Shown piece by piece: positions 3,643-37,980 of a stretch of DNA of 64,000 nucleotides. The notes beneath the pieces were generated by a model. The model was not told where the DNA came from. It saw nothing but the letters and a program-made list of their open reading frames with translations, and searched no databases. The DNA comes from a virus, in the IMG/VR virus record IMGVR_UViG_3300006903_000012; one strand, 5' to 3'. The translations under genes were made by a program, and so were the position numbers. Positions within the stretch are counted from its first letter, which is position 1, and every line of letters begins with the position of its first letter.

Positions 3643-3909
3643 CTAGTTACCGCTACTAACTTCACCTGCTGGCTTTGGATACATATGATAATCCGCCACC
3701 GTCTTACCCTGTTCATTCATTACATACACATGCCCAGAATCAATGATTCTAAAATGGTGTTCTTTACCTTCATAGAAGAAATAATGAACAGCACCAGGCA
3801 TTTTACTATCACTAATTGAAACATTATCTGAAGCATAAGTCTCAACCAATGTCACATCAGGAATAACATATTCTGAATTATCGTGCCGAATAACTTTTAC
3901 TGAAAACAT
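3643..3909 (-). CDS. hypothetical protein
   Basis: 88-aa ORF with ATG preceded by AAAGGAG (plus strand ctcctttat at 3919-3927). It is the first RBS-preceded gene after the capsid locus. Confidence 0.6.
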   Translation of the reverse strand: MFSVKVIRHDNSEYVIPDVTLVETYASDNVSISDSKMPGAVHYFFYEGKEHHFRIIDSGHVYVMNEQGKTVADYHMYPKPAGEVSSGN

Positions 3910-4663
3910 ATTTTCTGCTCCTTTATCTGAATAAAAATATTTCTGTTAAATGCTTCTAATATCACCGGCGGTCCGCAATAGAAAGAAACCCCAATCTCGT
4001 AAGGTTAAGAAGAACTATCGCGTAGCCTTACCCTTCCAGTTTATTTTCGTAACCCATAGTTCCTAGCATCCTACCCGGATAGATCACAGTTACCTGTGCC
4101 CCTATCAATGGCAGTTATAGGATCGAGTTTTTCAACCAGAACAGATTGGCAGCTGACCAGACTGATCTAGCTCATGCTATTGGGTCCTGTCCATGAGCTA
4201 CGGCTGAATTGTTTATCTAAATACTATCTGGGTGTCTTACACCTTGCGGAATATTTATTCGGTATATTGTTCCCTCGATCTTAATCGAGTTTTGCTAGAG
4301 AACCATCGTCCCAGTTACATTCACAATGTTTATCGGCTCTCACCAGGAAGGCTTGTCTTATTGGCTTGCTGTCCAGATGCTTCTTGCATCGCCATCGCAG
4401 GCGACATCTGGGACTTGTCAATTCAAGTTCTGACTCTGGGCCGGCCATTATTCCGCTCACCTTGCTAGTCTGTCTTCGTTATTAATCTCGTTTCAAGATT
4501 TCATAACTTACTCGGTTGCGCGCCGAGACCAGACCGCAGATAGTAATGTTATTTAGTTGTTATTACTTAATTCCCAATTATCGAACATCCCGTTCCCAGG
4601 CGACCAGTGAAGCGGGAGGTATATGCGGCTTGCGCACACATATGCTTCACAACCAACGCAGTT
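3910..4663 (-). ncRNA. unresolved structured non-coding region, probably further group I intron material plus the last capsid exon(s)
   Basis: No ORF on the minus strand. Minus-strand RNA has an R-like CAGACUAGCA (plus 4466-4478) and a complementary S-like AUCAGUCUGG (plus 4155-4170). There is a long hairpin GUGAAGCAUAUGUG..GCAA..CGCAUAU..GCUUCAC (plus about 4600-4650). There is also a P1/P2-like block CCUAU..AUAGGGGCACAGGUAACUGUG (plus 4085-4125) resembling the 5' end of the intron at 10533-11021. Confidence 0.4.
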
Positions 4664-5795
4664 CATTTCTTGTTATCACAAAGGCTCTTTATCCTTTGTT
4701 TCTATATGTCACCATATAGTTCAGACTATATCTTCACCCAAAAACAAGGATGGCCCGCTCTCGTGGAAGAATTATTGTCCAAAATAAGGACTCACTTCTA
4801 GTCGTTACACCTTCAAGCAGTTTTCACTGCGAGCTTGGCTCGGTATTGCCTTATAAAGGTTTTCACCGACTTCACGGGCTTTATACGCGGCAGCTGCGAT
4901 GATCTTTTAAACCCTCTGTATCTCGGATCAAATTTTGCATGAATTTTTGAATGACAGCTCATGCAGACAGTAACAAGATTTTCTTTTGAATGATTATCTT
5001 TACCAAAATCAATATGATGAACCCTAAGAAGCTTCTTGGATGAACAAAGAACGCACTTATAACCATCTCGTTCTTTAATTCGTTTCTGAACCTTACCATT
5101 CCAACCAGGAGCATAGCCAACCAAAGAACCGTGCCCGTGTCGAAACCAGTGGTGTTTCTTTCCTCGATGAACATTCGGACTAGCTCGTAAAAGTTCCGAA
5201 TGTGCCTCCCTTTCTTTTGGATCATCAAACCTATTTGGTCTATACTTACAGACACACGACTTACAAAATTTAGCAGTTCTAGATTTTATCTGTTTTCCGC
5301 AATCTTTACAGAACCTTGGTTTTACAAGTTTCTTTTGCCTGCCAAATGATCTAGCATATTTAGCAAATTCAGAACCGTGAGGGAGTTGGTCTCCTGCTAA
5401 ATATTTTCTATAACAAGGCCGGCAATAACCAGTTTTTGATTTTCCGTAAGGCGGATTACTTTTATTCAGCTTAGTTTTACAAACCTTACACCTAGGACGA
5501 ATCTTTTCTTTACAGACAGGACAAAGATAAGCCCGTGGGTTTATCTTTCGATGCTTGCATCTAGGACATACTTTTTTGTAATTGTGCGCCATTCCGGCAT
5601 CCTTTGTTACTATCAAAACAGAGATAAAAACATCTACTGTATTATATCATATTCTACCGCGTAAACTTCAAAAGATATTGCCGTACACCCGGGCATCAAG
5701 TCCTTGAAACTGAGCGGGGTCTGTGTTGATTTGTAAACCAGCGGTTCACCGTTGTGGAACACACGCAACGGATAAACCGTCGAACTAAACGTCTT
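4664..5795 (-). mobile_element. composite group I intron region: decayed intron copy, HNH endonuclease ORF and an intact ribozyme core
   Basis: The intact core has R tagtcgttacac at 4799-4810 and S gttcagactatatc at 4719-4739. P4-P5-P4' (gcttggctcggtattgcc..ttcaccgacttcacgggc, 4832-4878) lies inside the 3' end of the HNH ORF. The 3' end is GAUAACAAGAAAUG at 4664. Upstream, 5598-5790 is homologous to the P2-P8 region of the sibling introns (gcggttcaccg at about 5740, and a 3'-end motif GAUAGUAACAAAGGAUG at 5598), but its P7 strands no longer pair. The 5' boundary is uncertain. Confidence 0.5.
4813..5592 (-). CDS. intron-encoded HNH homing endonuclease with multiple CxxC zinc knuckles
   Basis: ATG at 5592 after AAAGGA (the track start 5616 is TTG). 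The C-terminus LRVHHIDFGKDNHSKENLVTVCMSCHSKIH is an HNH motif. The stop codon abuts the R element. Confidence 0.75.
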   Translation of the reverse strand: MAHNYKKVCPRCKHRKINPRAYLCPVCKEKIRPRCKVCKTKLNKSNPPYGKSKTGYCRPCYRKYLAGDQLPHGSEFAKYARSFGRQKKLVKPRFCKDCGKQIKSRTAKFCKSCVCKYRPNRFDDPKEREAHSELLRASPNVHRGKKHHWFRHGHGSLVGYAPGWNGKVQKRIKERDGYKCVLCSSKKLLRVHHIDFGKDNHSKENLVTVCMSCHSKIHAKFDPRYRGFKRSSQLPRIKPVKSVKTFIRQYRAKLAVKTA

Positions 5796-5870
5796 ATCAC
5801 CCACCGCCGTCGCCGGGTACCGGAAGTCAGGCACCAGGATCAAGCGACCGATAGACGTGTCTATCGCATC
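5796..5870 (-). CDS. major capsid protein, exon 8 (3' boundary unresolved)
   Basis: A start-less in-frame segment DAIDTSIGRLILVPDFRYPATAVGD follows the 3' end of the intron at 5871. The track ORF 5634..5843 continues to a stop at 5634, but its last 45 or so codons are homologous to intron core sequence. Confidence 0.4.
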
Positions 5871-6287
5871 CTTTATTTGTTATCACTCAAAAAATAATGA
5901 GTGAGCGCAAGCATTTCTGTTGCACTCTGCAACTTATCATTTGTTGCAGAACAGACTATATCATATTCCGGAACAACCCGGAACTCGCCCTCTTAGTCGT
6001 TACACATTTAGGATAGTCGAGATTTATTTAGGACCGAACCACAAAATGGACAATAAGTTACTGGAACTCCATAGCAGAATTCTTTATCTGATAAAGTTAA
6101 GAACCAAACATCAGATAATTTTTCAATAGCCGCATCTGGAACCTTATCTTTACAAACATGTGTCTCAGTAATCTCATCTTCCCACATTCTCTAACTATCT
6201 CCTTTAGCTCGGTGTTATCATTTCAGACTTCCACCGAATTCGAGCGATTTGCACACAACCATTACTGATTGTGGGGCCTAAAAATTA
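5871..6287 (-). mobile_element. group I intron (type 1) in the capsid gene, with a small ORF in P6
   Basis: P1 is GGCU|U..AGGCC with a U.G pair. P2 is CACAAUCAGUAAUGGUUGUG. The P4/P5 block is ttccaccgaattcgagcg (6226-6246). R is tagtcgttacac (5994-6006) and S is cagactatatcatattcc (5952-5968). The 3' tail is GAUAACAAAUAAAG. Confidence 0.65.
6008..6187 (-). CDS. intron-encoded small protein (59 aa, CxxC pair), function unknown
   Basis: ATG at 6187 after AAGGAG. Sequence is MWEDEITETHVCKDKVPDAAIEKLSDVWFLTLSDKEFCYGVPVTYCPFCGSVLNKSRLS. It falls below the 60-aa cutoff of the track, and its stop overlaps the R element. Confidence 0.45.
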   Translation of the reverse strand: MWEDEITETHVCKDKVPDAAIEKLSDVWFLTLSDKEFCYGVPVTYCPFCGSVLNKSRLS

Positions 6288-6396
6288 AGCCAAAACAAAG
6301 CCGGGAACAATCTGCCCGTCTTTCTGTTGGATGATTTGCATGATGGGATGAGTTGAGCCGAGCTGAGTTGCGCCCAAACTTAAATATCCCTTCTTT
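6288..6396 (-). CDS. major capsid protein, exon 7
   Basis: Start-less segment (I)KKGYLSLGATQLGSTHPIMQIIQQKDGQIVPGFVLA bounded by two intron ends. It joins exon 6 in frame. Confidence 0.55.
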
Positions 6397-7447
6397 CAAT
6401 CGCTCTAGCATCACTGCTAGGATTAGACTATACCTTCATCCACAAACATTATGGATGTCTGCGTGTTGCAGGTATTTTATATTTGGCTTCGAATTTTTTA
6501 ATTTTTTCAATAAGTTTAGATTCATTTTTCAAATCATCTGTTCGAAGAATAAGAAGTTTGTATCCTCTAAGTCGATAATCCTTGTTTCTTTTCTTGTCAC
6601 GTTCAAAACTTTCTTCTCGACTATGCCAATAGTTACCATCATATTCAATAATCAGGTTATGCGTTCGGTGAACAAAATCAGGTACATGTCCCGCTACCCA
6701 GACCTTGCCCGAACCAACGAAACGATAATTGAATTTATGTTCTTTAAGGATACCTAACAACTTCTTTTCGTGTGAGTTCGCATGCCGTCGACTGCTACCC
6801 ACAATCTTCTTAGCAAACTCGATAATCTCCTCAGGCGATTTCCGAGACCAAGTTTTACTAAAACTGGCCGCTCGTTTTCTGGAAATGTCATCGTTACCCC
6901 AATTAGCTGCGTACATTTTTACCCAATTTTCAGGATCCGATAACCATTCAGTAGTTTGTATTGATTTTAGTTGACTGAAAGCTTCCAACTCACTAGGAGA
7001 TTTTGAATACCAAGATTTTAGAAAAGCTGCAACCCTTCTTTCTCTCACATCTGGATTATCATAGTTATTTTTCCTAAGTTTTTCTTGAAACTCAGGATCG
7101 GTATGATTTTCCGACATGATTTTGGATCGCAACTTCCTAAATTTTGGAGTTTGCTTAGATTCTCGCATCTTCTTTCTATAAACAGGGTCTTTAAACTTTT
7201 CTGACATTACCTTTCGCATTTTCTTCCGAAATGCTTCTTTCTCGGCTTCAGTCATTCGATCCCATTTAGACAGCTTTTCGCCATTCTTATTTTTCTTAGC
7301 CATAAAAATACCTGCCTCGGATTTCTCCTCAGTCGTTACGGGGCTAAATGTTTGATTACATCAGCTTCCCTCGGTGTTGTCTACTTGAGATTTCACCGAT
7401 ATAGCAGAATTTTACATACCCATTACTGGATAAGGCGACAAAAATTT
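6397..7447 (-). mobile_element. group I intron (type 2) in the capsid gene, carrying an endonuclease ORF in P8
   Basis: P1 is GCGAU|AAAUUUUUGUCGC and P2 is UAUCCAGUAAUGGGUA. The P4/P5 block is cttccctcggtgttg..ttcaccgatatagcag (7366-7410). R is cagtcgttacgggg (7330-7343) and S is agactataccttcatcc (6425-6441). A P9 hairpin CUAGCAGUGAUGCUAG is followed by ..UUG at 6397. Confidence 0.7.
6449..7303 (-). CDS. intron-encoded homing endonuclease, Vsr/PD-(D/E)XK-like (EDxHD-type) catalytic domain
   Basis: 284 aa. The N-terminus has basic repeats (K..DP.YRKKMRESK, HTDPEFQEKLRKN, NPDVRERR). The C-terminus YRFVGSGKVWVAGHVPDFVHRTHNLIIEYDGNYWHSREE..RDKKRNKDYRLRGYKLLILR fits the Vsr/DUF559-like pattern. 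Confidence 0.7.
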   Translation of the reverse strand: MAKKNKNGEKLSKWDRMTEAEKEAFRKKMRKVMSEKFKDPVYRKKMRESKQTPKFRKLRSKIMSENHTDPEFQEKLRKNNYDNPDVRERRVAAFLKSWYSKSPSELEAFSQLKSIQTTEWLSDPENWVKMYAANWGNDDISRKRAASFSKTWSRKSPEEIIEFAKKIVGSSRRHANSHEKKLLGILKEHKFNYRFVGSGKVWVAGHVPDFVHRTHNLIIEYDGNYWHSREESFERDKKRNKDYRLRGYKLLILRTDDLKNESKLIEKIKKFEAKYKIPATRRHP

Positions 7448-7693
7448 ATCGCTTCTAGCGCTTTCGGATGACCAAAGATGTGCGTTGGTTTCGCACACCC
7501 CGCCACCAAAAAGTTGTCGAACTCTTCAATGTCAAAGCTGCCAGTCGGATTTGCATTCACACGCGCGCCGTTAGCGGCCGTGACTTGGGTCGTAATACCA
7601 TCAAAGGCTTTCGAGTTAGTATTGCGATTACCCTTAACGATAGCCCTGTCCCAATATTGAAGCGTTAAAATTTCTTGCAGCTTGATCTCTTTT
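7448..7693 (-). CDS. major capsid protein, exon 6
   Basis: Start-less reverse translation (V)KEIKLQEILTLQYWDRAIVKGNRNTNSKAFDGITTQVTAANGARVNANPTGSFDIEEFDNFLVAGCAKPTHIFGHPKALEA. It resembles the G.G...l.Gl and ivmnP blocks of HK97-fold capsid proteins. Confidence 0.65.
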
Positions 7694-8023
7694 CATGGTT
7701 ATCCACTATTACTAGTGGCATGGACTATTCCTTCATCCGCGATTTGCGGAGCCTGCGTATTGCAAGTTACTTATTACTTGCCTCGCCTTTCGGCTCAGTC
7801 TCTACGGGGTCACGAAGACTTCCCTCGGAATTATCCATCTTATGATAATGGATTTTATCTTTCTCAATAGTAAGATAATCAAAAACAATCTCATTCTCAG
7901 AAAGATATTTTTCAATGTCTAAAAGTTGATTAGTTGTTAGCATAAGTTTGGACTTATCCGATATGAGCAGGTTATTATTGCAAGCAATTACTCGCTTGCC
8001 AGGCTATCATTGAGATTTCCTTA
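7694..8023 (-). mobile_element. group I intron (type 2) in the capsid gene, no intact endonuclease ORF
   Basis: P1 is GGGU|U..AGCCU and P2 is GCAAGCGAGUAAUUGCUUGC. R is cagtctctacgggg (7796-7809) and S is ggactattccttcatcc (7722-7738). P9 is CCACUAGUAAUAGUGG followed by ..AUG at 7694. A 150-nt insertion in P5 holds only a short ORF remnant starting at 7943. Confidence 0.65.
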
Positions 8024-8041
8024 ACCCCCATTACTTGAACG
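8024..8041 (-). CDS. major capsid protein, exon 5 (18-nt microexon)
   Basis: CGUUCAAGUAAUGGGGGU lies between the 3' end of one intron and the P1 of the next. It keeps the reading frame (..G-V-VQVMG-V-K..) and resembles the end of exon 4 (CAACUUGAUGGGGU). Confidence 0.45.
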
Positions 8042-8955
8042 CAAGTTCCCATCTATTACTAGATGGCTTAGACTATACCTTCAAAGGCCGCGTATTATCA
8101 AGACAAAATAAAAGTCTCGATCTCGGATTTCTCCTCAGTCGTTACGGGGTCAAACTTTTACAAGTCGACTTCCCTCGGTATTACCCTCGTCTTCAGCGGT
8201 CGGGTTTCACCGATATGAGCGGCGTGCCGGGCCATTTCTTATTTTCCGATAAAGGCCGGAAAGCTAATTTTCTGCTTCCTGCTTCCGATCAATTTCTGCA
8301 TCACTTTCTCATCGAAGCTTTTTATCTTATCAGCTACCTGCCCAATATTTTTTAACTCTTCAGCCCAAAGAATCAGAACCGAAAATCCTTGCTTTTTGAT
8401 ATACTCAATACGCTTCACATCATAGCACCGCATTTTTCCATCTTTCCTATGATGGGTATACCCAAAAACATCGATAACAGCTTTAGCGTCCACTCGACAA
8501 AAATCAGGGCAGAATCTGCCAATCATTAGTCGACCATTCCCAACATACTCATACGGCAGATCCATCAATTTTAGAATATCCCGCACTTGCTGTTCGGGTA
8601 ATGATAACGGACGATTCCACAACGAGCTAGAAAGTCTTTCAGCACCATAAGTCGGATCTGTCTTATACAAAATTCTAGACTTCTTCCTTGCCTTCTTGGC
8701 GGCCTTACTTCTAACATCAGTTGTTAAGTGAGCTAGCCCGGTTTTCTCAAAAAGACCCTGCTTCATTCTTATTGAGTGTTCCTTACCCTGTTTAGCTGTT
8801 TTCTTTTTTCCTTCGGGTGTAGCATGATACAACTTCTTTGACTTTGAAATCTTCTTTGCGACTGCTTCACGTTCCTTTGCTGAACGGTTCTTCCAAAGTC
8901 TTTTTGCAGCTATTGAACATTTAATGCCTTTACTGGTCTTTTGCATATAGAATTA
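8042..8955 (-). mobile_element. group I intron (type 2) in the capsid gene, endonuclease ORF in the P1 loop
   Basis: The 5' splice site is GGGGU|UAAUUC at 8956/8955. The ORF starts 11 nt into the intron. The IGS-like GGCCC follows the ORF stop. The P4/P5 block is cttccctcggtatta..ttcaccgatatgagcgg (8169-8222). R is at 8136-8149 and S at 8069-8086. P9 is CCAUCUAGUAAUAGAUGG. Confidence 0.65.
8239..8946 (-). CDS. intron-encoded homing endonuclease, Vsr/PD-(D/E)XK-like (EDxHD-type)
   Basis: 235 aa. The C-terminus LPYEYVGNGRLMIGRFCPDFCRVDAKAVIDVFGYTHHRKDG..KRIEYIKKQGFSVLILW is paralogous to ORFs 6449, 9290 and 21560. Confidence 0.7.
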   Translation of the reverse strand: MQKTSKGIKCSIAAKRLWKNRSAKEREAVAKKISKSKKLYHATPEGKKKTAKQGKEHSIRMKQGLFEKTGLAHLTTDVRSKAAKKARKKSRILYKTDPTYGAERLSSSLWNRPLSLPEQQVRDILKLMDLPYEYVGNGRLMIGRFCPDFCRVDAKAVIDVFGYTHHRKDGKMRCYDVKRIEYIKKQGFSVLILWAEELKNIGQVADKIKSFDEKVMQKLIGSRKQKISFPAFIGK

Positions 8956-9261
8956 ACCCCATCAAGTTGCGTACTGAGCTGCGAAATACCAAGCCCTTGA
9001 ATCCGGGCCACCGCAATCGAATGGCGGATTTCTTCGTTCGTCAAACTTTTCTTCCCGCCAATATACCGGCGGGTCTGACTCTTATTCGACCCATCGTGAG
9101 TATATTCCTCAGGACAAGAACCAGGGTCGAAGAAACCTTGATAAGTTGCGCCGTCACCACTGAAGTCTAGCGTAGTCATTTCACGCCAAAGATCAGCTTG
9201 GTAATCAGTCACAACTTCTGGAAGAACTCTCCAGTTCGTGATTTCTTCGCACAACGTTAAG
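8956..9261 (-). CDS. major capsid protein, exon 4
   Basis: Most of track ORF 8910..9254, whose TTG start is an artefact: (I)LTLCEEITNWRVLPEVVTDYQADLWREMTTLDFSGDGATYQGFFDPGSCPEEYTHDGSNKSQTRRYIGGKKSLTNEEIRHSIAVARIQGLGISQLSTQLDG. Confidence 0.6.
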
Positions 9262-10270
9262 CATCATTTTCAGTTACCTGAAAGATAGACTATACCTTCA
9301 TCCTCTTTCGAGGAGCTCTGCGTATTACCGTATTGGTTTCTTTTAGTCGTTCCGACTTTTGTATCCTCTTATCAAAAATCAATAATTTAACCGCTAAGGA
9401 TTCCAAATCTTGTAATTCATCTTCATCGATAACTAAAGTCTGATATCCTTGAGATTTTATGTACTCAGTTCTTTTCTCAACTCGATCTCTCAGCTTTTTG
9501 GTCTTCTGATATGCCTTATGCCGAAAGCCACCTAGCTCAATCAAGGCGCGATAATCGTCTCTCTTAAAATCAGGACAATACCGTCCAATCATCAGTTTAC
9601 CATTACCAACAAATTCATAAGGTAATCCCAGTAGCTGTAAAAACGATTCAAGTTGGATCTCAATTCTGGACATCGAGCGCTTATTTAGAATTTTAGAAAC
9701 AGTATCAGCATGAACATCGCAAGATTTGTAATGCTCGTTTATTGATTTCTTAAACTTCTTCCTTCGAACAAGTCCGCCAATTTTCCAAATTTTCTTCTGT
9801 ATCTCAGATAGATACTTCCGATGAGATGCTGTTCTGACAGTTTTTCGTAGCGCTGTAGTTCTTCGTTTTCGTATTTTGGGGTCTGTCCATTCCAATTTTC
9901 TCATCTCACTGCGTCGTTTCTGCTTATCTGGATCAGAGTAATAGATATCTTGTTGTCGCTTTGCTCTTTCTTTTATTTTGCTAGGAGTCAGAATCCGCTT
10001 CTGAGCGACACTCTTCGCTTTATTTACCCTCTTAAGTTCTGACTTAGATATCTTATACTTGTATGCTCGTACTGGCTTTCCTGTTCTTGGACTTGTTCTA
10101 ATTTTATTTTTCCGGCTCAAGGCCAATCCTCCTACTTTACAATACGGTCTCGCCTTTCGGCTCAGTCGTTACGGGGTCACGAAGACTTCCCTCGGTGTTG
10201 TCCCTGTGGGAGTTCACCGATATGAGCAGAGTTGTTTCATGTGTATTACTACACAAGGAGACCTTAGTTG
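9262..10270 (-). mobile_element. group I intron (type 2) in the capsid gene, endonuclease ORF in P8
   Basis: P1 is GAGAU|CAACUAAGGUCUC and P2 is UGUGUAGUAAUACACA. The P4/P5 block spans 10187-10230. R is cagtcgttacgggg (10163-10176) and S is agactataccttcatcc (9287-9303), which contains the ORF stop. P9 is UUUCAGGUAACUGAAA followed by AUGAUG at 9262. Confidence 0.7.
9290..10126 (-). CDS. intron-encoded homing endonuclease, Vsr/PD-(D/E)XK-like (EDxHD-type)
   Basis: 278 aa with a basic repeat-rich N-terminus. The C-terminus is LPYEFVGNGKLMIGRYCPDFKRDDYRALIELGGFRHKAYQ..KRTEYIKSQGYQTLVI. Confidence 0.7.
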   Translation of the reverse strand: MALSRKNKIRTSPRTGKPVRAYKYKISKSELKRVNKAKSVAQKRILTPSKIKERAKRQQDIYYSDPDKQKRRSEMRKLEWTDPKIRKRRTTALRKTVRTASHRKYLSEIQKKIWKIGGLVRRKKFKKSINEHYKSCDVHADTVSKILNKRSMSRIEIQLESFLQLLGLPYEFVGNGKLMIGRYCPDFKRDDYRALIELGGFRHKAYQKTKKLRDRVEKRTEYIKSQGYQTLVIDEDELQDLESLAVKLLIFDKRIQKSERLKETNTVIRRAPRKRMKV

Positions 10271-10283
10271 ATCTCAGTTGGAT
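10271..10283 (-). CDS. major capsid protein, exon 3 (13-nt microexon; alternative solution 10271..10293)
   Basis: AUCCAACUGAGAU lies between the 3' end of the intron above (..CCGAUUG) and the P1 of the intron below. Two splice-site pairings keep the frame: ..TAQ-Y-PTE-I-LTL.. or ..TAQYP-QPIDPTE-I-LTL.. Confidence 0.35.
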
Positions 10284-10491
10284 CAATCGGTTGCTTTGTT
10301 ATCTATATCTTCACATTCGATATAGGTCAGACTATCTCATCACCCACGTTTGTGGGGCTTCCCTCTTAGTCGTTACACATTGCCCGACTGCAGTTAGCAA
10401 TCTGCTTAGCTCGGTGTTGGCATCACAGCGTTCACCGAATTCGAGAAGTTTTATATCAGTTAATTACTTAACTGTACCCCCAACCGAGGGT
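10284..10491 (-). mobile_element. compact ORF-less group I intron (type 1) in the capsid gene
   Basis: About 200 nt. P1 is CCCAAU|..GUUGGG (alternatively ACCCU|..GGGGU). P2 is CAGUUAAGUAAUUAACUG. The P4/P5 block is gctcggtgttggcatcacagcgttcaccgaattcgag (10409-10445). R is tagtcgttacac (10367-10378), P8 is CCCACAAACGUGGG and S is gtcagactatctc (10326-10345). The 3' tail is GAUAACAAAG. Confidence 0.65.
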
Positions 10492-10532
10492 ATTGGGCCG
10501 TAAAATCGGTTGGCGTCACATACGGTTGTGGA
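10492..10532 (-). CDS. major capsid protein, exon 2 (41-46 nt)
   Basis: (L)PQPYVTPTDFTAQ(Y) begins right after the ..UAACAAAAUG 3' end of the upstream intron. The 3' boundary is 10492 or 10487, depending on which P1 is used. Confidence 0.4.
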
Positions 10533-11021
10533 CATTTTGTTACTTAGGAAGTGATTCTATAAATTCATCTATTGTTGCGAACTCTGTGTAGCGTCCATTG
10601 ATTATATCTTCGTCTACTTTGGCTTCTTTCTGTTGCCATTCCTTTGTCCAAAACCATTGCTGATCTAACAAAGAACTTGCTAACAACAGACTAGTCCAGA
10701 TACTGACAAGTCGTCCGTTTGATTTCCTCAAAGCTATATAATCAAACAAGAAGACCCTTGGAACCTGAAGCAATCGACCAAACCAAGAACGTCGCTTCAA
10801 TGGATAAACCATAACTTATCTCCTAAGGATCAATCATTTCTGTTGATCTCTTACACTTCTAATTTGTGCAAGTTCAGACTATCTCTTCGTCTTGAAAGAC
10901 GCTATCCGTATAGTCGTTACACATTTAGTTAATTGATTAACTTTTAGCTCGGGATTAGCGTCGCAGCCTTCCCCGAATTAGGATAGATCGCATAAATAAA
11001 TCTTATGCCCCTCACTATTGA
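10533..11021 (-). mobile_element. group I intron (type 1) in the capsid gene, with a 90-aa ORF near its 3' end
   Basis: P1 is CCU|UCA-AUAG-UGAGGG with a U.G pair at 11022. P2 is GCAUAAGAUUUAUUUAUGC. The P4/P5 block is agctcgggattagcgtcgcagccttccccgaatta (10944-10980). R is tagtcgttacac (10911-10922) and S is gttcagactatctc (10872-10885). The ORF runs 10812 -> 10540, and the 3' end is GUAACAAAAUG at 10533. Confidence 0.65.
10540..10812 (-). CDS. intron-encoded protein of unknown function (no nuclease motif seen)
   Basis: ATG preceded by AGGAGAUAAGUU. 90 aa, MVYPLKRRSWFGRLL...WTKEWQQKEAKVDEDIINGRYTEFATIDEFIESLPK. It lies between the S element and the predicted 3' splice site. Confidence 0.5.
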   Translation of the reverse strand: MVYPLKRRSWFGRLLQVPRVFLFDYIALRKSNGRLVSIWTSLLLASSLLDQQWFWTKEWQQKEAKVDEDIINGRYTEFATIDEFIESLPK

Positions 11022-11296
11022 AGGATCACCGGATCCGTCGCCTTTGTCACCAACCCGCCATCCAACCCTTTGGATTTCAAAATATGCTCTGTCATAGACT
11101 TCACGAGCAACGGATCAGCTTCGAAACCCTGGGCATTCAAATTCTTCAAAACTTGTTTCGTAATTTCGTCAGCGCCGTATGGATCATTCAGATTCACACC
11201 AGCGCTTTTTGCAAACAGACGAGCCGCATCATTGGCCGACATACCAGCCACCGGCAACACTTGCGGCACCGTCAACATATTATCAAAAGCATCCAT
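11022..11296 (-). CDS. major capsid protein, exon 1
   Basis: ATG at 11296, 20 nt after the scaffold gene stop. MDAFDNMLTVPQVLPVAGMS...GLVTKATDPVI. The track ORF stop at 11015 falls inside the P1 loop of the first intron. Confidence 0.6.
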
Positions 11297-11316: not shown

Positions 11317-12888
11317 TTAATATCTGGGACCCGACACTGTCGATTGCGCTAATTCAGAAGCGCGAAATTTCTTGATCGGCACCTGATCGCCACTTAACGC
11401 TGGAAATGATAAATCACCAGCTTGTGGAGCTGATTGAGTCGGAGTATCTGGCCGAAGCATTCCCAACGACTTACGCTGGGGACCTTTTCGACTAGATACT
11501 GACTCAACTTCTTTTTCGGTCAAGGCTTTGATTAGCGTTTCTACTTTTGCTTCCAAACCAGCTGTCTGCGACTTGTATCGAGCTTCTACCTGCTCAACCG
11601 CATGTGTTACCGCGGCCTGCACCGTCGCAGTTAAATCTACCTGACTCGGTTCTGTCGTTTGGTTAATAAAATCAACTACTGCTGGCACGAACTCATTCAG
11701 AGACTTCTGCATAAGTTCGCGTTTTTCCAGCCGACTGTAATTACCACTATCTAATGTCTGCAAAAATGAGTCGGACCATTTTTGCAGAAATGCCTCAGCC
11801 GGAGATATGGTTGCGGACTTAACATCGGCATTTGCTTGCGTCCGAACCTTGACATCTGTATCGACTGGCGTTGTTGATTTCTTTTTTGCAGCCTTGACTG
11901 GAGTCGGTGGCTGCATCGCTTGCTTTTTCGCATCATCGGTCGGTTGTTTAGAAAACATTAGCCGACCTTCTTCTGCTTCATCTTCGGGTGTTTCAGCGGC
12001 GTCCACTTCCGGATCTTCCATTGCCTCTTCTTGCTGTTGGTCAATTTGCGGATGTTGATTGATCTGTTCTTCCGGAATAGGGGCTGGATTGCCACCTACT
12101 TTTTGCATCGGTTGGGGCGCTGGATTCATATCAGTTGCCGCTGCTTGACCTTCAGCGGTAATTCCACCGTCTGGAGTTGCAGCTAATGAATGAGCATAAT
12201 CCCGCACAGCACTAACCAAATTAGCAGCATGTGCCAAAAGTTCACCTTTATTTCCCATTCCCGGCGACGCTAGTGCTTTCTGCACTGATTCCAAGGCAAC
12301 TATCGCATCGGCCACTAATTCATCTTCAACATCTGATTTTCTATAAGAAACTTCAGGCGAGGCTTCAACTGACATATCATCCGAATTAGTTTCATCTTCA
12401 GACATCTCAACGTCTTCAGTCCCATCAACTTCAGAATGAGTATGTTGTTTCTTAGCCTTATGTTTCTCAACTTCATCATCTGGTGCTGACTCATGTCCTT
12501 CATCTACATCTTGCTCAGTTTCATCAGTCAACTCATCCGTCGGCTCGTCTTCAGCATCAATGACATCCGGATTCGGCTGCAATTCATCTAAATCTTCACC
12601 ACTATAGTTCTGAGTATCGGCCTGCATCTCTTCTGGCAACACACTCATTGTACCATTAGCTGTTGCTTTACCAACCATCTTGCCACATTCCGGACAATCA
12701 ACATCTTCACTGGAAAACGAAGTCTTGCAGTTCGGGCATTCTCGCATGTGCGACTTTATAACTAATTCTGTTTCCGTATTCGATTTTCCAACTCTCTTTG
12801 ATAAATCTTTCTGAACTAATTTCTGTGCCAGCACCGGATTATTCAAAACGGCCCTAGCGTCGTCTTGCTTTGTTTTAATTTGTCCCAT
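11317..12888 (-). CDS. scaffolding-like protein (very acidic, with a zinc ribbon)
   Basis: 523 aa, located between the protease and capsid genes. It has long D/E-rich tracts, a CPNCKTSF..CPECG ribbon and a coiled C-terminal part. Confidence 0.5.
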   Translation of the reverse strand: MGQIKTKQDDARAVLNNPVLAQKLVQKDLSKRVGKSNTETELVIKSHMRECPNCKTSFSSEDVDCPECGKMVGKATANGTMSVLPEEMQADTQNYSGEDLDELQPNPDVIDAEDEPTDELTDETEQDVDEGHESAPDDEVEKHKAKKQHTHSEVDGTEDVEMSEDETNSDDMSVEASPEVSYRKSDVEDELVADAIVALESVQKALASPGMGNKGELLAHAANLVSAVRDYAHSLAATPDGGITAEGQAAATDMNPAPQPMQKVGGNPAPIPEEQINQHPQIDQQQEEAMEDPEVDAAETPEDEAEEGRLMFSKQPTDDAKKQAMQPPTPVKAAKKKSTTPVDTDVKVRTQANADVKSATISPAEAFLQKWSDSFLQTLDSGNYSRLEKRELMQKSLNEFVPAVVDFINQTTEPSQVDLTATVQAAVTHAVEQVEARYKSQTAGLEAKVETLIKALTEKEVESVSSRKGPQRKSLGMLRPDTPTQSAPQAGDLSFPALSGDQVPIKKFRASELAQSTVSGPRY

Positions 12889-21270: not shown

Positions 21271-21542
21271 TTTGTTACAAAGTCTTACAGACCTTTGAGT
21301 AAGTCATTTCTGCTCACTTCTTGCAATTCCTATTTCTTGCAAGTTCAGACTATATCATTATCTTTCTTCAAGATAGTTCCCACATAGTCGTTACACACTT
21401 CCGCAGATGCGGGTTGGCTCGGTATTTGGACTCTCACCATTCACCGAATTCGAGAACTGTTACAACATCCATTACTGGATGAAGCCGCCAAGTTGACGGG
21501 TTAAGTAGGGGGGCGGTTGCTGTATACTCGTCGGCGCAACCG
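21271..21542 (-). mobile_element. ORF-less group I intron (type 1) near the 5' end of the portal gene
   Basis: P1 is AAGU|CG..CGGCUU with a U.G pair. P2 is CAUCCAGUAAUGGAUG. The P4/P5 block is ggctcggtatttggactctcaccattcaccgaattcgag (21417-21455). R is tagtcgttacac (21385-21396) and S is gttcagactatatc (21343-21356). The 3' end is GUAACAAAUUG at 21271. Confidence 0.65.
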
Positions 21543-37906: not shown

Positions 37907-37980
37907 AGCACCAAGCGGGACTCGAACCCACAATCTACAAATTAGAAGTTTGTCGATCTATCCAGTTGATCTATTGGTGC
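37907..37980 (-). tRNA. tRNA-Arg (anticodon UCU)
   Basis: The reverse complement folds as a canonical cloverleaf. Acceptor is GCACCAA/UUGGUGC, D arm is GAUC-AACUGGAUA-GAUC, anticodon arm is ACAAA-CUUCUAA-UUUGU and T arm is GUGGG-UUCGAGU-CCCGC. Confidence 0.9.

Follow-up and report, generated by a model that had tools for sequence, protein, structure and literature searches.

The window analysed here, 64,000 nucleotides (nt) of the virus record IMGVR_UViG_3300006903_000012, carries on its minus strand, at 11296-4567, what we hold with high confidence to be the single major capsid gene of an uncultured phage, colonised by eight separate and long-diverged group I introns of two types whose removal would leave one spliced mRNA. 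Nine exons there encode one capsid protein of the HK97 type, 444 amino acids (aa) in length; the gene spans 6,730 nt, made up of 1,335 nt of coding sequence and 5,395 nt (80%) of intron. An earlier reading of this DNA, referred to below as the sequence-only reading, had proposed a capsid gene split by at least eight introns over 3910-11296. The eight introns are confirmed, and the count within the capsid gene is exactly eight; the interval holds for 11296-4567, and its last 657 nt (4566-3910) are neither exon nor recognisable intron. The case is built on the anatomy of the sequence, on RNA covariation, on in-frame colinearity with uninterrupted homologs and on presence/absence polymorphism, all of which were observed directly.

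Splice sites were set after the U that pairs with a G in helix P1 and after the terminal G of each intron, and were afterwards adjusted by comparison with uninterrupted homologs. A U precedes each of the eight 5' splice sites, in keeping with the P1 helices containing a U.G pair that had been proposed earlier, and all eight introns terminate in G. When the nine exons are spliced in silico, the start-less coding segments do join in frame, giving an uninterrupted open reading frame (ORF) of 444 aa without stop or frameshift across 1,335 nt; every intron, conversely, holds an in-frame stop codon 3-49 nt inside its 5' end, upstream of the core. The exons are the following.

Exon 1: 11022..11296, minus strand; 275 nt; M1 to L92, phase 2; tblastn match to residues 1-92 at 100%.
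Exon 2: 10487..10532, minus strand; 46 nt; PQPYVTPTDFTAQYP; ends ...CAA TAC CCT; colinear with homologs.
Exon 3 (micro-exon): 10271..10293, minus strand; 23 nt; QPIDPTE plus 2 nt of an Ile codon; tblastn match at 100%.
Exon 4: 8956..9261, minus strand; 306 nt; LTLCEEITNW...STQLDG; placed by tblastn and homolog alignment.
Exon 5 (micro-exon): 8024..8041, minus strand; 18 nt; end of a Val codon, VQVMG, 2 nt of a Val codon.
Exon 6: 7448..7693, minus strand; 246 nt; KEIKLQ...PKALEA; tblastn match at 100%, colinear with homologs.
Exon 7: 6288..6396, minus strand; 109 nt; KKGYLSLGAT...VPGFVLA; placed by tblastn and homologs.
Exon 8: 5656..5870, minus strand; 215 nt; DAIDTSIGRL...ISFEVYA plus 2 nt of a Val codon; placed by tblastn and homologs.
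Exon 9: 4567..4663, minus strand; 97 nt; end of the Val codon, then TALVVKHMCAQAAYTSRFTGRLGTGCSIIGN and the stop codon; tblastn match at 100%.

The ATG of exon 1 sits 20 nt beyond the stop of the scaffold gene (at 11317), and the exon ends in ...GAUCCU, the final U of which pairs with G in P1 (UCCU/GGGG with a 3-bp extension). Two boundaries of the sequence-only reading had to be revised. It had joined exons 2 and 3 as 'Y-PTE', which misplaced both ends of intron 2; this 'TAQ-Y-PTE' version, like the early P1 that went with it (CCCAAU/GUUGGG), was rejected because homologs require AQYPQPxDPTEI and because an orthologous intron in a relative (locus L143) has the same CCCU^CAACCG boundaries, where ^ marks the splice site. 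Exon 2 ends at 10487, and exon 3 (10293-10271) agrees with the homolog consensus QPLDPTEI. It had also ended the protein in exon 8, and a protein end at the stop at 5634 was rejected since homologs extend further and a ninth exon was found after intron 8, which places that intron inside the gene; the apparent tail of the exon 8 ORF (EYDIIQ followed by a stop) is intron read-through, and the homolog C-termini TALVIKHMCAQAAYTSRFTGKLGTGCTIIGN, with the conserved TALVVKHMCAQ...IIGN, correspond to exon 9. The counterpart of exon 5 in homologs is VTQVMGV, in which V218 and K219 are invariant in all homologs. An alternative 5' splice site for intron 5, after GTT AAG GA, would restore the 'KE' of the homologs; it was rejected, both because it lacks the U.G pair and because the DNA of an uninterrupted relative (L060, GGAGT^AAAAGAG) matches the GGGGU^AAAAGAG junction between exons 5 and 6; the 'KE' difference thus stems from a repeat that has contracted downstream of that junction. 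The eight predicted ligated junctions, with 15 nt on each side, read as follows.

Junction 1: GGATCCGGTGATCCT^TCCACAACCGTATGT
Junction 2: ACGGCCCAATACCCT^CAACCGATTGATCCA
Junction 3: TGATCCAACTGAGAT^CTTAACGTTGTGCGA
Junction 4: GCAACTTGATGGGGT^CGTTCAAGTAATGGG
Junction 5: TCAAGTAATGGGGGT^AAAAGAGATCAAGCT
Junction 6: AGCGCTAGAAGCGAT^AAAGAAGGGATATTT
Junction 7: GGCTTTGTTTTGGCT^GATGCGATAGACACG
Junction 8: TGAAGTTTACGCGGT^AACTGCGTTGGTTGT

The spliced product retrieves 983 relatives, the best of them uninterrupted metagenomic proteins of 440-450 aa, and it is 80% identical to one of these (P0001) across residues 5-444, with all junctions continuous in homologs. At the DNA level L060, whose protein shares 78% amino-acid identity, is continuous through all eight sites. 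The exons are under strong constraint, with a non-synonymous divergence (pN) of 0.16 against a saturated synonymous divergence (pS) of 0.79 and a pN/pS of about 0.2.

That this product is a capsid protein is well supported at the level of the fold rather than through a curated family, and the assignment draws on phrog_212, on Foldseek and on position after the portal-region and scaffold genes. The family phrog_212, 'major head protein', is matched by the spliced product at E 6.6e-4 and by 18 of 27 family members (best E 6.4e-6). An AlphaFold 2 model of the 80% identical homolog P0001, of low confidence (mean predicted local distance difference test, pLDDT, 56) and not of the spliced product itself, returned from the PDB exclusively HK97-fold capsids and encapsulins as top Foldseek matches (161 at E<=1e-3, best 2e-8, template modelling (TM) scores 0.3-0.45). 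The spliced product has no match to a Pfam capsid family, PF05065 included, and none among PDB sequences. The gene lies directly downstream of a scaffold-like gene of 523 aa and of portal-region genes of 1106 and 1689 aa, a neighbourhood that recurs on four contigs of 50-200 kb, and tblastn found no second capsid gene in the 64-kb window. Each of the four refutation tests of the sequence-only reading that could be run in silico came out in its favour.

The interruptions themselves are recognised by the Rfam group I intron model RF00028, which matches all eight on the coding (minus) strand. Introns 8, 1 and 2 exceed its gathering score of 50 bits, whereas introns 3 to 7 remain below it, at 27-36 bits (E values between 2.4e-6 and 9e-4 when the 8.2-kb region was scanned), largely because ORF insertions of 0.2-0.9 kb split their cores. 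We also built covariance models of our own for the two types (R1 and R2), and these find just nine cores in the 64-kb window, the eight of the capsid gene and one in the portal gene. The introns are listed below.

Intron 1: 10533..11021, minus strand; 489 nt, type 1; RF00028 55.4 bits, R1 130 bits; core 11021-10850, P9.1 hairpin GAUCAACAGAAAUGAUUGAUC, 90-aa ORF, 3' end UAACAAAAUG; in-frame stop ends 7 nt in from the 5' end.
Intron 2: 10294..10486, minus strand; 193 nt, type 1, ORF-less; RF00028 52.4 bits, R1 134 bits; P1 UACCCU/GGGGUA, 6 bp, with U.G at the splice site.
Intron 3: 9262..10270, minus strand; 1009 nt, type 2 (IA-like); RF00028 halves of 29.6 bits (E 1.7e-4) and 18.5 bits; P1 GAGAU/GUCUC; ORF in the P7.2 loop, stem ACCGUAUU/AAUACGGU.
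Intron 4: 8042..8955, minus strand; 914 nt, type 2; core 8238-8042; RF00028 35.7 bits, E 2.4e-6; P1 just GGGU/GCCC, with the ORF in its loop.
Intron 5: 7694..8023, minus strand; 330 nt, type 2; RF00028 27.1 bits, E 9e-4; AT-rich P5 insertion with a 58-aa ORF (7943-7767, no family); R and S elements are 2-mismatch variants.
Intron 6: 6397..7447, minus strand; 1051 nt, type 2; RF00028 halves of 29.5 bits (E 1.8e-4) and 20.8 bits; P1 GCGAU/GUCGC; ORF in the P7.2 loop, stem GCAGGUAUUU/AAAUACCUGC.
Intron 7: 5871..6287, minus strand; 417 nt, type 1; RF00028 33.6 bits, E 1e-5, R1 halves of 74 and 54 bits; P1 GGCU/GGCC plus 3 bp; 59-aa ORF (6187-6008, no family) in P6; 3' end UAACAAAUAAAG; stop codon directly at the 5' splice site.
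Intron 8: 4664..5655, minus strand; 992 nt, type 1; RF00028 58.9 bits; guide sequence GCCGCGUA (about 4891-4884) pairs over 8 bp with the exon end UACGCGGU, U.G at the splice site; extra hairpin between P7 and P3'.

The recurring R and S core elements by which the sequence-only reading had recognised the introns lie where it placed them. The type 1 R motif TAGTCGTTACAC occurs at 4799, 5994, 10367 and 10911, with a fifth copy outside the region at 21385, against 0.00 copies expected by chance in 64 kb, and its S element at about 4722, 5952, 10328 and 10875; the type 2 R motif CAGTCGTTACGGGG occurs at 7330, 8136 and 10163 (2-mismatch copy at 7796), and the S motif AGACTATACCTTCATCC at 6425 and 9287 (variants at 7722 and 8070). 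Type 1, formed by introns 1, 2, 7 and 8 together with the portal-gene intron, is without P7.1 and P7.2 and is marked by R GUGUAACGACUA, S GAUAUAGUCUGAAC and a 3' end of the form UAACAAA..G. Type 2, formed by introns 3 to 6, carries P7.1 and P7.2 between P7 and P3', both with compensatory changes, as in subgroup IA, a likeness read from these two helices without formal subgroup assignment. A P1 with U.G at the splice site stands in its canonical place just 5' of P2/P3 in introns 1, 2, 3, 6, 7 and 8 and is weaker, on manual reading, in introns 4 and 5, its length being 4-8 bp overall.

Comparison of the cores supports these structures. Aligned with one another, the five type 1 cores bear out P3, P4, P5, P7, P8 and P9, with 33 pairs and 91% of cells paired as against about 40% for slid partners; 15 pairs show double changes, and none of 500 shuffles matches the observed values. 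For type 2, the alignment of the four introns (A6) has 48 pairs, 90% of cells paired and 25 pairs with double changes, P7.1 and P7.2 among the helices that covary; P7, being invariant, is uninformative on covariation either way. Within each type the cores are just 54-69% identical, which speaks for eight old lineages rather than a recent burst, and recent intron duplication inside the capsid gene was rejected on the same figure. A blastn search with representative intron cores against GenBank phages returned almost nothing. The 3' core of intron 8 is 90% identical over 70 nt to Clostridium perfringens phages, for example phiCP13O (L146, JF767208.1, 17094-17163). The matching stretch of phiCP13O is an unannotated gap between two coding fragments labelled 'minor tail protein', a situation seen in several C. 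perfringens phages, and an unannotated group I intron probably splits that tail gene.

These data also bear on two other ways of accounting for the locus. In the first, repeated intron sequences from several phage variants would have been stitched into a chimeric contig, and in its favour are the conserved core motifs of 12-17 nt that the introns share and the different sites at which related phages carry introns; yet the divergence of the cores is far beyond what could confuse an assembler, each exon is present once and in the correct order, and the same proteins and neighbours occur on the four contigs mentioned above, so that we regard an assembly artefact as extremely improbable. Scarcely more probable is a dead capsid gene in a defective or decaying phage, on which selfish elements piled up with neither expression nor splicing. 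An intron share of 80%, an intron that has lost P8 and three introns with just short unidentifiable ORFs, possibly relics of endonucleases, would fit such decay, but the nine exons are intact, in frame and constrained (pN/pS about 0.2), the ribozyme cores stay paired through compensatory changes, all splice sites keep their U and G, the window holds no replacement capsid gene, the ORFs of the head module around it (portal, protease-like protein, scaffold) are long and intact, and the abundance of the phage sufficed for contigs of >100 kb to be assembled from it four times.

Seven of the introns contain an ORF, placed in the P7.2 loop (introns 3 and 6), the P1 loop (introns 4 and 8), P5 (intron 5), P6 (intron 7) or after P9.1 (intron 1); intron 2 has none. 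In intron 8 the 8-bp P1 spans the entire HNH ORF, which is how that gene comes to lie in the P1 loop. Four of the ORFs are full-length homing endonuclease genes, three of the DUF559/Vsr-like and one of the HNH kind, and they are, as had been noted before, the only long ORFs in 3910-11296.

Intron 3: 9290..10126, minus strand; DUF559/Vsr-like PD-(D/E)XK gene, 278 aa; PF04480 23.5 bits (cut-off 20.6).
Intron 4: 8239..8946, minus strand; DUF559/Vsr-like gene, 235 aa; PF04480 36.4 bits.
Intron 6: 6449..7303, minus strand; DUF559/Vsr-like gene, 284 aa; PF04480 35.9 bits; NCBIfam Vsr TIGR00632 E 4.8e-5; matches phrog_3339 'homing endonuclease'.
Intron 8: 4813..5616, minus strand; HNH homing endonuclease gene, 267 aa; PF01844 22.3 bits (cut-off 21.4); phrog_1271 E 1.3e-17; its 3' end overlaps the intron 8 ribozyme core.
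Intron 1, 3' part: 10540..10812, minus strand; 90-aa ORF with AGGAG upstream.

The 90-aa ORF of intron 1 has no match in Pfam, PHROGs or NCBIfam and occupies the same position after P9.1 as the DUF559 genes of introns in two relatives (L002 and L144). Like the products of a free-standing gene (22432-21560) and of the L002 and L144 genes, the three intronic DUF559 proteins match Vsr models; members of this set are 22-33% identical, and all keep an unvarying PDF together with one acidic residue and one Arg. By their DUF559 and Vsr matches, the three from the capsid introns appear to belong with the Vsr-like homing endonuclease family known from metagenomes (Dassa et al. 2009, PMC2677866) and with the related I-Bth0305I (PMC3239194), PD-(D/E)XK/Vsr-fold enzymes likewise encoded by group I introns, and by inteins, in metagenomic sequences of phage-like character; in contrast to that family, the copies here are only 22-33% identical to one another and are predicted endonucleases.

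The same capsid gene is mostly uninterrupted elsewhere. Tblastn shows it uninterrupted in 133 of the first 142 related loci, and our two covariance models find introns in just a few loci of the roughly 1.5 Mb surrounding about 140 related capsid genes. L143 has a single type 1 intron, exactly at the intron 2 site; L002 has a type 1 intron with a DUF559 gene after DYQAD, its P9.1 hairpin identical to that of intron 1; four loci (L006, L058, L067 and L117) share an ORF-less intron resembling intron 8 and placed 15 nt downstream of its site; and in L144 and L145 two introns occupy two more sites. L002, L006 and L144 are continuous across the sites occupied here. A 254-nt insertion after RVFH in L144 (3338-3591) bears hallmarks of group I, namely a GUAA-capped hairpin, elements GCAGAGACUGAG and ACAGUCCGAAC and the 3' end UAACAGAAUUG; it was missed by Rfam at E<=0.1 and by both of our models at E<=0.001, and it may be a third, divergent intron type. 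Since relatives have introns at the intron 2 site and at four further sites, the capsid family has at least 12 insertion sites, most family alleles being empty and the allele of the window the extreme. RF00028 returned nothing in L002 or L143, although our own models and manual reading show introns there, which calls for caution on its sensitivity. A database protein from L006, P0034, ends in NALSLNSVNSAKLPLGQRRAKPEGKLFGGCRD, which is translated intron, and in the window itself the ORFs at 11015-11296 and 8910-9254, and the called 'genes' of 93 and 100 aa, are exon fragments or read-throughs. Standard gene callers fail systematically on such loci, so that database entries consist of fragments and intron read-throughs only.

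The weakest links in the series are introns 4 and 5. Intron 4 has no P8 hairpin (a 16-column gap in alignment A6, where it reads GCGGC-C-UU-UGAAGGUAUAGUCU), whereas the other seven introns have one, and in both introns P1 is short, for which reasons they may splice poorly or need help. It is possible, if rather unlikely, that the eight introns are not all autonomous, intron 4 and perhaps intron 5 depending on a protein cofactor or a neighbouring ribozyme, or else that exon 5 is partly skipped. Skipping is conceivable because introns 4 and 5 share the same 5' splice-site context, GGGGU^UAA; it would join exon 4 to exon 6 at the hypothetical junction GATGGGGT^AAAAGAG and yield an in-frame isoform shorter by 6 residues, and phages Twort, SIOphi and phiNIT1 provide precedents both for exon skipping between neighbouring group I introns and for small internal exons (PMC11878797). 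Against dependence on help speaks that intron 4, with no core element missing other than P8, scores highest of the type 2 introns in Rfam (35.7 bits), and against skipping that the exon 5 residues are conserved in all homologs, so that a productive capsid protein probably needs them.

Returning to a capsid gene read through eight spliced introns, a number of points weigh against it and should be taken together: five of the eight introns score under the Rfam gathering threshold; no Pfam capsid family matches the product, and the structural model behind the HK97 assignment is that of a homolog and of low confidence (pLDDT 56, TM 0.3-0.45), so that the fold is a suggested one; the search for a second capsid gene covered 64 kb of a 111.5-kb contig; intron 4, unlike the other three type 2 introns, is without P8, and its P1, like that of intron 5, is 4-5 bp long; our covariance models were built from the same sequences, the type 2 structure having been derived from one of the four introns; and it is from anatomy and comparison that we infer splicing of the capsid introns.

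On this reading the capsid gene would be transcribed as one pre-mRNA of about 6.7 kb, in which each intron would fold its P3-P9 core and its guide sequence would pair with the 4-8 nt that end the preceding exon, placing the U.G pair at the cleavage site. Two transesterifications, initiated by guanosine, would then remove each intron up to its terminal G and join the nine exons, the two of 23 and 18 nt included, into the 1,335-nt ORF of the 444-aa HK97-fold capsid protein, and the early in-frame stops would halt ribosomes before they reach the folding cores. The four homing endonucleases, whose activity is predicted from their sequences, would presumably cut intron-less alleles of related phages at co-infection and so drive inheritance of their introns, which would thereby be mobile; the other four introns are ORF-less or have short unidentifiable ORFs.

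A ninth intron splits the portal gene upstream. It is an ORF-less type 1 group I intron of 228 nt with an Rfam score of 54.7 bits, and its setting is as follows.

21570-21496, minus strand: portal exon 1, MADELIVQKSVAPTSIQQPPPYLTR.
21495-21268, minus strand: portal intron.
21267-16201, minus strand: portal exon 2; the junction of exons 1 and 2 is continuous in relatives.
22432-21560: free-standing DUF559/Vsr-like gene, whose TGA overlaps the portal ATG.

A free-standing endonuclease gene beside an intron-split portal gene is an arrangement that we take to resemble 'collaborative homing', and the portal intron target CCCGU^CAACCG resembles the target of capsid intron 2, ACCCU^CAACCG. The 1689-aa portal ORF (L001 1619-6688, window 21270-16201) has Pfam matches both to Phage_portal and to the 2'-5' RNA ligase-like domain PF13563; such a fusion is unusual, the more notably so in a phage several of whose mRNAs would need RNA splicing.

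At the other end of the locus, the minus-strand stretch 3910-4566 is 657 nt long, ORF-less and placed between the capsid stop and an 88-aa gene that starts at 3909; relatives have in its position about 25-170 nt or a different gene. It has no match to Rfam or to R1 and R2, and nothing similar turned up in 141 related loci, elsewhere in the window or among GenBank phages; it holds several GNRA-capped hairpins, with a fold z-score of just -2.1. A group II intron at 3910-4660 was considered and rejected, as its GUGCG lies inside exon 9 and the motif at about 4330 that resembles domain V fails to adopt the 34-nt fold of one; a group II search of the region gave no Rfam match at E<=1. Elsewhere in the window, the peptide motif KHLPGKHDQxxH occurs at least 12 times between about 13826 and 25894 on the minus strand, in the 1106-aa protein, the portal-region protein and other large ORFs, and it is also N-terminal in a 156-aa protein adjoining the L002 capsid gene; head proteins may carry it as a recurrent signal for processing or targeting. 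A single tRNA gene lies at 37907-37980 on the minus strand (Rfam tRNA, 65 bits).

The sequence-only reading had put the densest phage cases at about three introns per gene, which underrates what was already published: in the crAss-like Zeta-group genome OLRF01000054 the major capsid protein gene is broken into five fragments, and genomes of that group hold as many as 14 introns each (Yutin et al. 2021, PMC7886860). That gene too is a phage capsid gene fragmented by group I introns with endonuclease domains in an intron-rich genome found by metagenomics, but it belongs to an unrelated phage group and has four interruptions, three of them with intron-type domains, compared with nine exons and eight introns here, and its introns were deduced from protein domains whereas RNA cores, exact splice sites and empty-site alleles are defined in the present case. 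Genes of cultured phages have at most two or three group I introns, with three in Twort orf142 and two or three in the TerL, DNA polymerase and rNDP reductase genes of Bastillevirinae (Weglewska et al. 2025, PMC11878797); they share with the present gene several mostly IA-like introns per gene, endonuclease ORFs in peripheral loops and small internal exons, and differ from it in that their splicing, exon skipping included, was observed experimentally, the eight introns here being known from sequence alone. The Jug (jumbo gut) phages have on average 18.5 group I introns per genome of 360-400 kb, with terL in two or three pieces, other essential genes split, PD-(D/E)XK and HNH endonucleases, and junctions confirmed by metatranscriptomes (PMC12880540), but those introns are spread across the whole genome, whereas here eight lie in one 6.7-kb gene and nine in 64 kb. 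A group I intron in a capsid gene, with splicing needed for the subunit, is known also from Cluster J mycobacteriophages, as a single intron (Pope et al. 2013, PMC3706429).

Because multi-intron phage capsid genes have been described already, the gene in the window is an extreme case of a known kind and not a new kind, even though eight introns in one gene exceed every phage example found in the literature searched, a search that was not exhaustive. Fungal mitochondrial cox1, also a conserved gene, is comparably dense: its group I introns can number a dozen or more, and it too has micro-exons, ORFs for homing endonucleases and many sites polymorphic for intron presence; cox1 differs in belonging to an organelle genome with protein-assisted splicing and transcription not coupled to translation, and in having LAGLIDADG or GIY-YIG rather than Vsr-like endonucleases.

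Taking all of this together, we put forward tentatively a broader reading, in which no protein-coding gene yet seen in a phage or bacterium might be as dense in introns as this one (eight introns, six per kb of coding sequence, micro-exons of 18 and 23 nt, in a family with at least 12 polymorphic sites), the four intron endonucleases and the free-standing copy by the portal gene might serve as a weapon against co-infecting relatives, cutting their capsid genes at multiple sites, capsid output might be gated by eight serial ribozyme reactions, and the family might be a natural system for the accumulation of group I introns, including guide-sequence-directed spread to look-alike sites such as those in the capsid and portal genes. 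No late product of a tailed phage is expressed more heavily than its capsid protein, whose mRNA would here depend on eight ribozymes all acting correctly on one transcript; at an efficiency of 90% per intron, about 43% of transcripts would be fully spliced. The gene would thus constitute a stringent natural test of how adjacent group I introns fold and splice across very short exons under transcription-translation coupling, and its family, with at least 12 sites and mostly empty alleles, would supply pairs of donors and recipients in which homing could be tested, as could the proposal that intron endonucleases aid one phage in its competition with another.

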